In this document: piece after piece, positions 1 through 9,761 of the stretch
How the letters are laid out: every line of letters begins with the position of its first letter
Position numbering within the stretch: position 1 is the first letter of the stretch
DNA from: a virus
Lineage: Duplodnaviria > Heunggongvirae > Uroviricota > Caudoviricetes
Strand: one strand, 5' to 3'
IMG/VR virus record: IMGVR_UViG_2698536369_000012
Location: 1-9,761 of that record
Length of the DNA stretch: 9,761 bases
Position numbers and translations under genes: made by a program
Notes under the pieces: generated by a model
Told to the model about the DNA's origin: nothing
Seen by the model: the letters and a program-made list of their open reading frames with translations, nothing else
The model's database searches: none

Positions 1-134
1 GCAATGGCCAGCTCTTCGTCACGCATGTTCTGCATGATGATGCGACGGCGGCGGTAAGCCGGGTCCGCCAGATTCTGCGGATCTTCATCCGGCAGGCGAC
101 GCAGGGTCATCTGCGGATTCACTTCATGCTTCGG
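1..134 (-). pseudogene. 3' internal fragment of a lambda-type major capsid protein E gene; runs off the left edge, 5' side cut by an in-frame TAG at 135-137
   Basis: Minus-strand translation of 1-134 gives PKHEVNPQMTLRRLPDEDPQNLADPAYRRRRIIMQNMRDEELAIA, which I recognise as an internal segment of phage lambda gpE. The next upstream codon (plus 135-137) is a stop, and sequence beyond it is AT-rich and unrelated. Confidence 0.7.
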
Positions 135-213
135 CTACATGAGTCAAATATGAAAGGATGTGAATGAATTTACTTGATAAAACATCATCAAATCGACATT
201 ATTCCTCCTTAAT

Positions 214-237
214 GCAATACAGCGTGCAATACAGCGT
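214..237. repeat. Perfect tandem direct repeat GCAATACAGCGT x2 upstream of the nuclease-domain gene
   Basis: Read directly: gcaatacagcgt at 214-225 and again at 226-237. Confidence 0.6.
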
Positions 238-1954: not shown

Positions 1955-2015
1955 TCAACGCAGGGGTGAGAGTTTTTTCTGGTGACAGACCGCGACAGAC
2001 GGCAACAAAACCAGA

Positions 2016-2070
2016 GAAAGGAAACGACACTGTCCAAAAAACACGTTTTCAGCATCTGTTGTTTCCTTTC
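2016..2070. repeat. Long inverted repeat: 14-bp arms (one mismatch) around a 27-nt loop, T-rich on both flanks
   Basis: gaaaggaaacgaca (2016-2029) pairs with tgttgtttcctttc (2057-2070); followed by tttttag on plus, and by a T-rich run on the minus-strand side as well. Confidence 0.5.
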
Positions 2071-2235
2071 TTTTTAGTGGGTGTTTCTAATAAAAACATT
2101 AAGTTACGGCGAAGAAGAACGGAAACGCTTTAAACCGGAAAATTTTCATAAATAGCAAAAAACTGCGCGCCTGACGCCCCGTAGTCTGCCGGATTGCCGG
2201 AAAGGACCCGCCAGCCAGAGCGGGCCCTAATTTCA

Positions 2236-2619
2236 TCAACCAATCAGCTTATAGCGACCATCCCGTGCATTGCGGCGTACACGCTCAATCTTGAGGCATA
2301 GCGCCGCATCTGGCTTTTTTGGGACAGGTACGCGGCAATATTCAGAAGCGCGAGGAATATTATTTATCCAGTCGATCACTTCACTTAAATACCAGGCCTT
2401 ACGCCCTTCCGTAACCTGCACACGCTCCGGGAACTCTCCACTAGCCTCAAGGTTTAGCAGTGTACGACGACTCAGGGTTGTAATTTCCATCACCTGATTC
2501 ATATCAACAAGGCGCTCGCTTAAACACATTTTGTCAGCGATAGCTTTTAATTCCTCTACAGCTGGATTCGGGTACATCATTTCGGCAATTGGCTTAAGGT
2601 CATTGTAATCATTCTGCAT
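2236..2619 (-). CDS. AlpA/Xis-type (MerR-like) helix-turn-helix DNA-binding protein, 127 aa, with N- and C-terminal extensions
   Basis: Central segment VMEITTLSRRTLLNLEASGEFPERVQVTEGRKAWYLSEVIDWI fits the AlpA/excisionase pattern (ITxLSRxTL ... G.FP ... W..SEV..WI). Strong RBS AGGGGGA 4 nt before the ATG, 11 nt after the stop of the decoration gene. Confidence 0.7.
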   Translation of the reverse strand: MQNDYNDLKPIAEMMYPNPAVEELKAIADKMCLSERLVDMNQVMEITTLSRRTLLNLEASGEFPERVQVTEGRKAWYLSEVIDWINNIPRASEYCRVPVPKKPDAALCLKIERVRRNARDGRYKLIG

Positions 2620-2630
2620 TGTATCCCCCT

Positions 2631-2972
2631 TTACACACGAGCCAGCGGCTGAACAGAAATACCTGAGCCAACAAACGCTGCAACCTTTACTGACAGTTCT
2701 TTAACAGACTCAGGCCAGTTCAGAGCATCAACATTTAAGACACCTGTCTTATAGACCTGAGCCTGTGTTTTTTTCGCGGTGTCGATTTGTACAGCGGAAA
2801 CATAAACCGCTTTACCTACGCTCGAACCATCCCATACCACCAGTGCACCTGTTGCATCTTCCTGCATCAGTGGCGTAAATGCAGGAATTACCCCTTTATT
2901 AGCTGAAAATATCCCCAGCGTAGTCACCAGTGCTTCAGTGCCAGCCATGAGTTCAGTGTAATGAGTAGCCAT
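2631..2972 (-). CDS. Lambda gpD-type head decoration protein homologue (113 aa)
   Basis: PAFTPLMQEDATGALVVWDG ... YKTGVLNVDALNWPE ... AAFVGSGISV parallels lambda gpD as I recall it ([20 protein letters not shown] ... YKSGTFRYEDVLWPE ... TAFAGTAISIV). Its RBS GGGGGAG overlaps the stop codon of the upstream capsid gene. Confidence 0.8.
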   Translation of the reverse strand: MATHYTELMAGTEALVTTLGIFSANKGVIPAFTPLMQEDATGALVVWDGSSVGKAVYVSAVQIDTAKKTQAQVYKTGVLNVDALNWPESVKELSVKVAAFVGSGISVQPLARV

Positions 2973-2981
2973 TGCTCCCCC

Positions 2982-4022
2982 TTAGCCAATGCGAACGGTA
3001 ACAAAACGATTGATGCGGGCCGGTATTGGCTGTGGTGCTGAATGTGTCTGCACATATTCAATAGCCGGATCACCAGGCACAATATAGTTTTTCGGCGCAA
3101 GTTCGGCTTTAGTCAGCCCCATTCGGATTAGCTCCGGATCCTGAATACCGCCATAGGCGACAATCCCCTGAAGAGCCGTATTGCCAAGCACCATCAAATC
3201 AGGATCAAGGAAATGTTTTTCAGTTCCGTCCTCGTCGGTATAACGCCCGCTGTATACAACAATCGCAACATCGCCCATATACCCTTTAAAACTCACCGAA
3301 TCACCAAGGTCTTTGAGGGCCGTTTCCAGTTCGGAATTAGAACCACGACGGGTATCCAGAGCCTCTTTTATCGCTCTGAATGAACGGTATTTCTTCCATA
3401 CATTACCGCCCATAATGATGATATTAGTGACGCCCTCACTAAATTCTGCGTAGCTCTCAATATCATCATTTGGATCAAAAGTTTCTTTATCCTTACCTGA
3501 CCACTCAGCACCGCCAAACTGAGTGATGATATTTTGTGGTTTAATATTCCAGTCCAGCTCATAACGTTCAATACCATCGCCCTCAATGATATTTTTCCCC
3601 GTTGTGATTGCCTGAACGGCAAGCCATTCAATACGTGCACGAATAGCTTTAGCCTGATTTACAATCGCCTGTTTAACTTTAATATTACGCGCTCCAAAAG
3701 CATTGTATTGCTCAGGTGATACACCAGCAGGGCGCACAGCTAACTTATTTGGATCAATGCTGCTTTTCGGCTTCATATAGCCTGGACGAATTGTTTTTGA
3801 TTCGTACCCTTCGTCACGTGAAACTTTACTACCCACCATAGGAGAACAAAACGCTGCAATTGGGATATTTGGATCGTCGATTGTATCAAGAATAATATCG
3901 CGCGATTCAAACATTACCGAGCGAGTAAAAAACAAACTGGTAAACAACGCATTTAGTTGTTTTTGTACATCTACAGCATTAACCACCTGTACAAGCTGGG
4001 TAGGCGAATATAAATCAACCAT
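2982..4022 (-). CDS. Lambda gpE-type major capsid protein, full length (~346 aa), divergent from lambda
   Basis: Blocks GGAEWSGKDKETFDPNDDIESYA and TRRGSNSELETALKDLGDSVSFKGYMGDVAIVVYSGRY closely match recalled lambda gpE (GGTEWSKRDKSTYDPTDDIEAYA; TRRGSNSELETAVKDLGKAVSYKGMYGDVAIVVYSGQY). The track ORF runs to 4196, but the start is most likely ATG at 4022 (MVDLYSPTQL...), which has GAGG 6 nt upstream and gives a lambda-E-like length; ATG at 4028 is an alternative. Confidence 0.85.
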   Translation of the reverse strand: MVDLYSPTQLVQVVNAVDVQKQLNALFTSLFFTRSVMFESRDIILDTIDDPNIPIAAFCSPMVGSKVSRDEGYESKTIRPGYMKPKSSIDPNKLAVRPAGVSPEQYNAFGARNIKVKQAIVNQAKAIRARIEWLAVQAITTGKNIIEGDGIERYELDWNIKPQNIITQFGGAEWSGKDKETFDPNDDIESYAEFSEGVTNIIIMGGNVWKKYRSFRAIKEALDTRRGSNSELETALKDLGDSVSFKGYMGDVAIVVYSGRYTDEDGTEKHFLDPDLMVLGNTALQGIVAYGGIQDPELIRMGLTKAELAPKNYIVPGDPAIEYVQTHSAPQPIPARINRFVTVRIG

Positions 4023-4196
4023 ACGCATCCTCTTTGCATTCATTAAAAATAATTGTGGATATATGCTATCACCGATATTTGTCATGCGAATACATGCAAC
4101 CGAGTGCAATGTTGTATAAAGTTTTGGGATGACAACTTCAGCGCGGATAATTAGTGTTAATATCTTCACTCCCTTTGGTCTGGATTTATGTAGCAT

Positions 4197-4230
4197 GCCG
4201 GAAAATTTATTTTTTTCCGGCCTTTTTTAT
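4197..4230. terminator. Strong hairpin between the SSB and capsid genes; T-tract lies on the plus-strand side, so function for the minus-strand operon is uncertain
   Basis: gccggaaaa (4197-4205) / ttttccggc (4213-4221), a perfect 9-bp stem with 7-nt loop, followed on plus by cttttttat. May act bidirectionally or as an RNA structural element. Confidence 0.3.
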
Positions 4231-9543: not shown

Positions 9544-9646
9544 TTACTGGTTATTGCTGTTTTGTTTTTCCAGGTTTCCATCCAGGATGCCACTCACCAC
9601 GGATCCATGCCTGAACCTCTGAAAGTCGATACCCTGCAGCACGTTC
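9544..9646 (-). pseudogene. 3' end of a minus-strand gene truncated by the IS insertion
   Basis: Minus-strand frame is open from the IS boundary down to TAA at 9544-9546: NVLQGIDFQRFRHGSVVSGILDGNLEKQNSNNQ. No start codon; the 5' part must lie beyond the IS. Confidence 0.4.
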
Positions 9647-9761
9647 TGAACCGCCCCGGGAATCCTGGAGACTAAACTCCCTGAGAAAGAGGTAAACAGA
9701 ATGACTAAAAATACTCGTTTTTCCCCCGAAGTCCGTCAGAGGGCGATTCGTATGGTTCTGG
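9647..9761 (+). mobile_element. Left end of an IS629-like IS3-family insertion sequence (partial, continues past the window)
   Basis: Terminal sequence TGAACCGCCCCGGGAATCCTGGAGACTAAACTCCCTGAGAAAGAGG matches the IS629/IS3411-type left inverted repeat as I recall it, followed by the orfA start. Confidence 0.8.
9701..9761 (+). CDS. IS3-family transposase OrfA, N-terminal 20 codons (partial)
   Basis: Translation MTKNTRFSPEVRQRAIRMVL matches the N-terminus of IS629-type OrfA; GAGG RBS upstream. Confidence 0.8.
   Translation, partial: MTKNTRFSPEVRQRAIRMVL

Follow-up and report, generated by a model that had tools for sequence, protein, structure and literature searches.

The window analysed here, a stretch of 9,761 nucleotides, is a helper-embedded PICI (HE-PICI) lodged in a lambdoid prophage, within its major capsid gene, and it is a relative of EcCICFT073. 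Its DNA matches thousands of E. coli genomes, and annotated copies of the element lie in lambdoid prophages, with the capsid gene split in one locus (L001) and the portal gene split in another (L002). The C-terminal part of the helper's major capsid gene E occupies positions 1-135, and therefore the satellite is inserted inside E. Read along the coding strand, the genes of the element run from int and a short AlpA through Bro-N (with YlcI/YnfO divergent), Icd-like, small ORFs and DUF4222 to a D5-type primase, SSB, capsid, decoration and a further AlpA-family gene, and then to Nu1-like or accessory genes. The 127-aa product of that further gene, the ORF at 2236-2619, is called AlpA2 here. The split helper gene, the doubled TGTATTGCA arm motif and the int-AlpA/Bro/primase-SSB/late order of zones by which HE-PICIs are recognised are all found. 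The '11capE' type of HE-PICI, described by Tommasini, Mageeney and Williams in 2023 (PMC10111431), shares with the window the insertion in E, the doubled TGTATTGCA motif, the Bro/replication/late zone order, a helper-like cos of about 250 bp and the lack of terS. The main features of the locus are as follows.

1-135, minus strand: C-terminal part of the helper prophage major capsid gene E
213-234, minus strand: doubled attP-arm motif cTGTATTGCAcgcTGTATTGCA (TGTATTGCA-N3-TGTATTGCA) of HE-PICIs, beside attR
2012-2210, minus strand: complete lambda-type cos site (cosQ, cosN, R3, I1, R2, R1)
2204-2227, minus strand: hairpin just past the alpA2 stop codon, with its 3' arm entering cosQ
2236-2619, minus strand: alpA2, encoding an AlpA-family winged-HTH (wHTH) protein of 127 aa (from ORF, Pfam, PHROG, AF2 and dN/dS)
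2631-2972, minus strand: satellite head-decoration gene of the lambda gpD family, directly upstream of alpA2 (from ORF, Pfam and PHROG)
2982-4022, minus strand: satellite major capsid gene of the lambda gpE family, 346 aa (from the conserved start)
4197-4221, no strand assigned: hairpin between ssb and the predicted capsid promoter P_cap, separating the replication and capsid modules
9551 to about 9650, minus strand: remnant of the canonical int-proximal alpA, its last ~32 codons

The satellite capsid protein is 41-45% identical to the gpE of the helper. A program-listed capsid ORF of 404 aa (2982-4196, minus strand) over-extends the start, the true conserved start being at 4022, and its 58 surplus codons span the promoter and repeat-array region. 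As the preliminary description had it, alpA2 closes the capsid operon, directly after the gpD-like decoration and gpE-like capsid genes; it is also the last gene before cos, because cos occupies 2012-2210. Between the decoration stop codon and the alpA2 ATG lie 11 nt (TAA-AGGGGGATACA-ATG), the Shine-Dalgarno sequence is good, and the capsid, decoration and alpA2 genes are almost certainly co-transcribed. They are closely spaced without overlapping, so that strict translational coupling of alpA2 to the decoration gene, as had been proposed, would be no more than a possibility. In most lineages, hairpins or clear intrinsic terminators are found at the ssb/array and alpA2/cosQ junctions, and because it is flanked in this way on both sides the capsid cassette looks like a self-contained transcription unit. 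Canonical terminators sit at the position of the ssb/P_cap hairpin in other lineages, and clear intrinsic terminators follow alpA2 in L012, L014 and L019; the window's own two hairpins are not canonical terminators.

The AlpA-type HTH core with extensions of about 40 aa, which had been read from the 127-aa protein at the outset, was borne out by profile searches. The Pfam Phage_AlpA profile (PF05930) matches aa 36-85 of AlpA2 with a score of 35.8 bits where the curated cut-off is 21 (E 7.6e-9), covering positions 2-51 of the 51 in the profile and leaving 35 aa on the N-terminal side and 42 aa on the C-terminal side. PHROG 2790, 'excisionase and transcriptional regulator', matches aa 11-109 (E 1e-49). 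Database annotation of AlpA2-type proteins goes only as far as 'AlpA family' or 'helix-turn-helix' regulator, and NCBIfam and PADLOC gave nothing useful on AlpA2. N-terminal extension, core and C-terminal extension have median dN/dS values of 0.26, 0.07 and 0.26, respectively, and purifying selection acts on all three parts. Because of these values, and because full-length relatives retain both extensions, the extensions are taken to be real protein.

An AF2 model of AlpA2 was generated from an alignment of 106 sequences, with a mean pLDDT of 81.3 and values above 90 at aa 40-90; an earlier run with 22 close homologues (pLDDT 60.8) was discarded. Two N-terminal helices at aa 8-15 and 19-33 precede a winged HTH at aa 36-86, built of helices 40-47 and 51-60, strands 67-70 and 73-77 and helix 78-86, and a low-confidence linker at aa 87-104 leads to a basic C-terminal helix at aa 105-119. 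This succession of helix, helix, two-strand wing and helix is that of the MerR-like winged helix-turn-helix fold. The closest solved structures are excisionases, and AlpA2 belongs to the AlpA/excisionase branch of wHTH proteins. The likeness to the small-terminase wHTH that had been suggested for AlpA2 holds at the level of the MerR-like superfold and not at that of the branch. None of the recombination directionality factors (RDFs) compared, namely the GIsul2 excisionase (8C3T), RdfS (8DGL), P2 Cox (4LHF) and P4 Vis, matches its layout of extensions, with two N-terminal helices and one C-terminal helix after a linker of ~18 aa. The AlpA antiterminator of P. aeruginosa was rejected as an analogy, being a Q-like protein with no relation to AlpA2 beyond the name (PMC9371919). 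That protein has an eight-helix Q-like fold with an N-terminal ring that reaches inside the RNA exit channel, plus a C-terminal HTH (PMC9371919), whereas the model of AlpA2 is a wHTH with a beta-wing that matches excisionases and not Q proteins.

Members of the AlpA family usually have a tyrosine integrase beside them, a habit that stands outside the Pfam definition and that alpA2 does not follow. In relatives the integrase is ~7-8 kb from AlpA2 and has its own short AlpA of 75-85 aa; the small int-side regulator, present in each element, is a Phage_AlpA protein or, in some lineages, HTH_17. AlpA2 is the second AlpA of the element, because the canonical short alpA adjoins int at the opposite end. 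The preliminary description was thus right that the gene is not beside an integrase and that its product is not the conventional int-adjacent AlpA or Xis. It had also allowed for an integrase and att site just beyond the window, with AlpA2 as their excisionase; both exist, and the integrase has an AlpA neighbour of its own. In the window, the end of an IS3-family element at ~9633-9761 (start near 9633-9637) truncates the canonical alpA, and the int gene lies outside. Because of this insertion, the satellite copy in the window is probably defective for induction or excision.

The canonical AlpA of EcCICFT073 (Fillol-Salom 2018, PMC6092414) is likewise PICI-encoded and has the same Pfam family and wHTH core. 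Canonical PICI AlpA proteins are 62-85 aa long, whereas AlpA2 has 127 aa with conserved N- and C-terminal helices, and the int-proximal AlpA of the same elements is 33-36% identical to AlpA2 over the core. AlpA2 co-exists with this canonical AlpA, and its gene lies at the opposite end of the element, beside cos rather than int.

The arrangement was followed through about 140-145 loci (given L numbers here). AlpA2 is present in 95 of the 96 loci with this capsid type, and the capsid gene stands at a fixed distance in 140 of the 140 AlpA2 loci with enough flank; on both counts, the placement of AlpA2 is not due to chance. The order of capsid, decoration and AlpA2 is followed by cosN, 55-82 nt past the stop codon, in 131 of 137 loci. 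The six exceptions are mostly pattern misses (L130-L132), and L057, L062 and L064 are recombinants that have a tail-I-like gene in place of cos, just after alpA2. Full-length relatives are found only in Enterobacteriaceae, including Escherichia, Citrobacter, Enterobacter, Klebsiella, Salmonella, Kluyvera, Kosakonia, Cedecea, Buttiauxella and other genera. When 1.8 billion cluster representatives were searched with a profile, only three full-length AlpA2 clusters at 50% identity came up, and the more than 2,000 remaining matches cover the AlpA core alone. No full-length relative beyond the PICIs of Enterobacteriaceae was detected in the genome, metagenome and representative searches, and no phage carrying AlpA2 was detected in the phage collection.

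The DNA upstream of the capsid gene was aligned for twelve loci. It is otherwise unalignable and contains one conserved block, made up of three to four direct repeats with a period of 10 bp, which lies ahead of the predicted promoter. In the window, this region is laid out as follows.

4081-4120, minus strand: 10-bp-phased direct-repeat array, candidate AlpA2 operator, at about -64 to -28 of P_cap; the sequence from 4120 to 4081 is TTTATACAAC ATTGCACTCG GTTGCATGTA TTCGCATGAC
4120-4114, minus strand: array box TTTATAC
4110-4104, minus strand: array box ATTGCAC
4100-4094, minus strand: array box GTTGCAT
4090-4084, minus strand: weak array box TTCGCAT
4063-4071, minus strand: extended -10 element TGaTAGCAT of P_cap, at its predicted position

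TGaTAGCAT lies ~45 nt before the capsid ATG, and transcription is predicted to start near 4056. With a start there, the strong boxes begin at about -64, -54 and -44 and reach to -38, and only the weak box is at the -35 position. A generic sigma-70 scan, which requires a -35 hexamer, did not call P_cap. Judged by general promoter architecture, such a layout would be what one expects where a promoter depends on an activator. The distance from the start of the strong boxes to the TG of the conserved TGnTAnnAT is exactly 31, 41 and 51 nt in all lineages, with a further box at 61 in some; this fixed spacing is seen in E. coli, Kluyvera, Kosakonia, Superficieibacter and metagenomic lineages. A shift of the array by one 10-bp phase between lineages was considered and ruled out, because the distances from box to -10 are identical and some lineages simply have one more upstream box. 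A sigma-54 promoter (TGGCAC-N5-TTGCA) was rejected on the box sequences, which are spaced by 10 rather than 11 and lack the GG.

The array is the best single match in each AlpA2 locus, scoring 25-42 bits against a background of 8-12 and a shuffled-window maximum of 15.8, with a matrix that was built from the same sites later scored and is in this respect circular. It is found in all AlpA2 loci that include the region, L014, L012 and L017 among them. The 80 EcCICFT073-type loci, which have the capsid and decoration genes without AlpA2, have no array (maximum 12.9 bits), and the median array score is 7.5 in these loci against 27.2 in AlpA2 loci, a comparison that is phylogenetically confounded in that a single deep AlpA2 lineage is compared with a single EcCICFT073 lineage. 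The EcCICFT073 capsid operon is preceded by a looser TTGCA-like pattern, which amounts to two unphased boxes of at least 5 bits and was not accepted as an equivalent array. A gene for a PerC-family regulator is found upstream of the EcCICFT073-type capsid operon. Among array-bearing elements, the box variants TTGTAC, TTATAC and TTGTGC coincide with an altered recognition helix or wing of AlpA2 in four divergent lineages; in L134, R51G in the recognition helix (window numbering) is accompanied by unchanged boxes.

Sites for the OmpR/PhoB family characteristically consist of direct repeats with a 10-bp period, and the boxes resemble a -35 hexamer (TTGCAC vs TTGACA). Together with the lineage confounding, these points speak for a reading in which the array is bound by some other factor, such as a host regulator of the OmpR/PhoB type or another protein of the element, or is a set of mere -35-like hexamers, and in which the role of AlpA2 is unrelated. 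That reading is improbable given the distribution of the boxes. Their sequences differ between element lineages of closely related hosts, and therefore an element-encoded binder is a better fit than a conserved host factor would be. The cassette encodes no DNA-binding protein other than AlpA2, which is also the sole one common to all array-bearing elements.

On the leading reading, which is put forward tentatively with a probability of roughly 0.45, AlpA2 would be a module-specific transcription factor of the satellite capsid cassette that oligomerises on the candidate array and auto-activates the capsid operon. Monomers would bind head-to-tail, one per helical turn, on the ATTGCAC-type repeats centred near -61, -51 and -41, and the target would be a promoter with TGnTAnnAT and without a good -35. 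Head-to-tail binding with one protomer per turn is known from BldC, Xis, RdfS and Cox, the closest structural relatives of AlpA2. Contacts between protomers would be made by the extra N-terminal helices and the basic C-terminal helix, in the manner of the added helices of RdfS and P2 Cox; oligomerisation of these proteins proceeds via alpha-1 of RdfS and the C-terminal helices of Cox (PMC11963761). Binding of AlpA2 would then recruit RNA polymerase and turn the capsid operon on, so that the satellite's capsid and decoration proteins would be made in a burst late on. Self-activation has a precedent in canonical PICI AlpA, which acts in this way on its own promoter (PMC6092414).

With alpA2 standing last in the operon that it is proposed to activate, such a circuit would be one of positive feedback. 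An operon-terminal activator needs some other trigger, and helper-driven read-through or basal transcription would supply the first round of expression, with the feedback taking over from there. In helper-embedded copies, the Q-modified late transcription of the helper could express the operon without the activator. Repression of the operon by AlpA2, instead of activation, is a less likely sub-variant.

The trio of capsid, decoration and AlpA2 is kept in elements of quite different make-up. It is found in L014, a fis-site PICI with a DUF927 primase, and in L012 and L017, where the int-side regulator is HTH_17 instead of AlpA. The PICIs that share the cassette differ in integrases, int-side regulators and primases, and the cassette, from the array and extended -10 through capsid, decoration and alpA2 to the hairpin or terminator and cos, moves as a unit between Gram-negative PICIs. 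AlpA2 is best regarded as an RDF-family wHTH protein with added helices that has probably been recruited to regulate this mobile capsid cassette.

With excisionases as its nearest solved relatives and a PHROG annotated as excisionase/regulator, AlpA2 could also be taken for a second, late RDF or integrase regulator that acts on the attP, attL or attR arms and drives or times excision. The reported delay of satellite excision relative to composite excision (PMC10111431) would suit this role, as would the destruction of the canonical alpA by an IS in the window. In E. coli elements, moreover, the doubled att-arm motif TGTATTGCA (213-234) and the P_cap boxes (4094-4110, ATTGCAC/T) share an ATTGCA core, which may be coincidental or may reflect partly overlapping recognition. 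Every element, however, already has an AlpA or HTH_17 beside int, and EcCICFT073 excises without any AlpA2 (PMC6092414). The att motif remains TGTATTGC in L006 (boxes TTATAC) and L019 (boxes TTGTAC), where AlpA2 has also changed, and it is missing from L014, L017 and L018, all of which have AlpA2 and boxes. Because it stays constant while the boxes vary and can be lost while they are kept, the att-arm motif was not accepted as being in general the same site as the P_cap boxes. AlpA2 follows the capsid module and not the integrase clade, and therefore no role at the att site is indicated; a part in excision is doubtful.

A dual-site late switch, with AlpA2 on the P_cap repeats and also on the ATTGCA att-arm repeats or on cos-adjacent DNA, would combine such functions and is very improbable. 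If it did operate, production of satellite capsid would be coupled to excision from the helper late gene and/or to recognition of cos, and repair of the helper gene and packaging of the satellite would be timed together.

The cos site that follows alpA2 has these parts.

2180-2210, minus strand: cosQ-like sequence
2168-2179, minus strand: cosN 12-mer GGGCGTCAGGCG
2110-2127, minus strand: cosB R3
2056-2072, minus strand: cosB R2
2012-2030, minus strand: cosB R1

Positions 2012-2210 of the window (minus strand) are 86-89% identical to the lambda left end and to the pre-Nu1 region of lambdoid phages. The cosN 12-mer is GGGCGTCAGGCG in the window and GGGCGGCGACCT in lambda, and cosB is nearly that of lambda. 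The repeat at 2016-2070 that had been named as a possible binding target for AlpA2 is indeed a repeat, the inverted R2/R1 pair of cosB, and carries no motif specific to AlpA2. The same holds for the cos region as a whole, where nothing is conserved beyond the features of lambda itself, and no ATTGCAC-type array was found near cos. No Nu1 or Rpp gene follows cos within the window.

The preliminary description had suggested a role in packaging, by analogy with the small terminases. AlpA2 would then sit at or near cos, or on the helper terminase, and aid recognition or cutting as a functional analogue of Rpp or Nu1. Its gene is adjacent to cos, and the fact that cos marks the end of the late module suffices to explain this. 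AlpA2 has no sequence similarity to Nu1 or Rpp and is much closer to excisionase-type AlpA: Pfam Nu1 was not matched, and a phmmer search against the PDB with E up to 10 returned neither the lambda Nu1 N-terminal domain (1J9I) nor RppA/RppC (6HLK/6HN7). Homology to Rpp (RppA/RppC) was rejected, as phmmer gave no match to RppC and the structural match is at the level of the superfold only. The genes for Nu1 and Rpp lie downstream of a matched cosB, whereas alpA2 lies on the opposite, upstream side of cos, and AlpA2 is without a terminase-interaction, oligomerisation or dimerisation domain of the Nu1/Rpp type beside its wHTH. Lambda, which lacks AlpA2, shares the conserved cosQ/cosN flank.

Three unrelated kinds of cosB occur downstream of AlpA2 (lambda-like, GGTGGTGG and CCCACTTCC), and AlpA2 is unchanged across them. 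Elements without a Nu1-like gene of their own, the window included, have a helper-type cosB that needs no redirection; 45 loci have a lambda-like cosB without a terS-like gene. A function in packaging is for these reasons unlikely, and a better candidate target for AlpA2 is found at the promoter of its own operon.

Where cosB is of the GGTGGTGG type ('GCTGGTGGTGG', in full GCTGGTGGTGG(T/G)TTGTTG), a satellite Nu1-like gene follows in 70 of 70 loci. The protein has 168-180 aa, and its N-terminal part has no match to the DNA-binding region of Nu1. A Nu1-like gene with a distinct cosB is found in L002, L006, L008, L016 and L018, and a helper-like cosB in the window, L001, L009 and L017. This pairing of Nu1-like gene and cosB points to a single satellite family with two alternative ways of packaging. 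In L017 (10660-11259) and L014 (9720-10346), a protein with a lambda tail-assembly-I-like N-terminal domain is encoded just downstream of cos.

AlpA2 might also act on helper DNA or proteins, for instance by repressing the helper capsid genes to let the satellite's capsid and decoration proteins prevail, or by titrating a helper or host protein in the manner of TorI, a protein with the excisionase fold. No ATTGCAC array was found in the ~60 kb of helper prophage that was scanned, the best match of 12.6 bits being inside the shuffled range, and a single Q-dependent promoter drives the helper late genes and leaves few obvious targets. Interference with, or hijacking of, the helper by AlpA2 is improbable.

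EcCICFT073 has no AlpA2; an unrelated ORF of 137 aa, c1502, occupies the slot and is followed by cos and rppA. As a candidate homologue of AlpA2, c1502 was rejected, with nothing found by BLASTP and an hhalign probability of 0.1. The 137-aa protein (L007 12084-12497, c1502) is present in 74 of the 80 EcCICFT073-type loci and has no similarity to Pfam, NCBIfam or AlpA2. It may be a non-homologous counterpart of AlpA2. Deletion of the capsid and decoration genes of EcCICFT073 reportedly gives no clear phenotype.

E. coli and its relatives commonly contain Gram-negative PICIs and HE-PICIs, which move defence and virulence cargo. The element type has already been described. The 2023 account of HE-PICIs (PMC10111431) places Phage_AlpA in the 'Integration' category, with no mention of a second AlpA in the late zone or of an array upstream of the capsid gene, and a full-text literature search returned no paper that describes either. 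Should AlpA2 act on the array as proposed, the capsid cassette would be a self-regulated, exchangeable unit, and a dedicated regulator with a recognisable operator would offer a handle to switch the capsid module and to probe what the satellite capsid proteins are for. The finding would extend known wHTH/RDF biology rather than establish a new principle. For annotation, a match to Phage_AlpA alone is no evidence for an integration module or for the boundary of an element.

Scans of the window for tRNA genes and Rfam families found nothing. The stretch from cos to attR is a variable cargo hotspot, and in the window it holds, at 300-1190 on the plus strand, a gene for a protein with an Mrr_cat-like nuclease domain (weak Pfam match), for which PADLOC gave no match and NCBIfam nothing useful. 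In other copies (L001, L008, H10 and H16), the cargo at this slot is Abi_C, DUF262 plus HEPN, or DUF2971.
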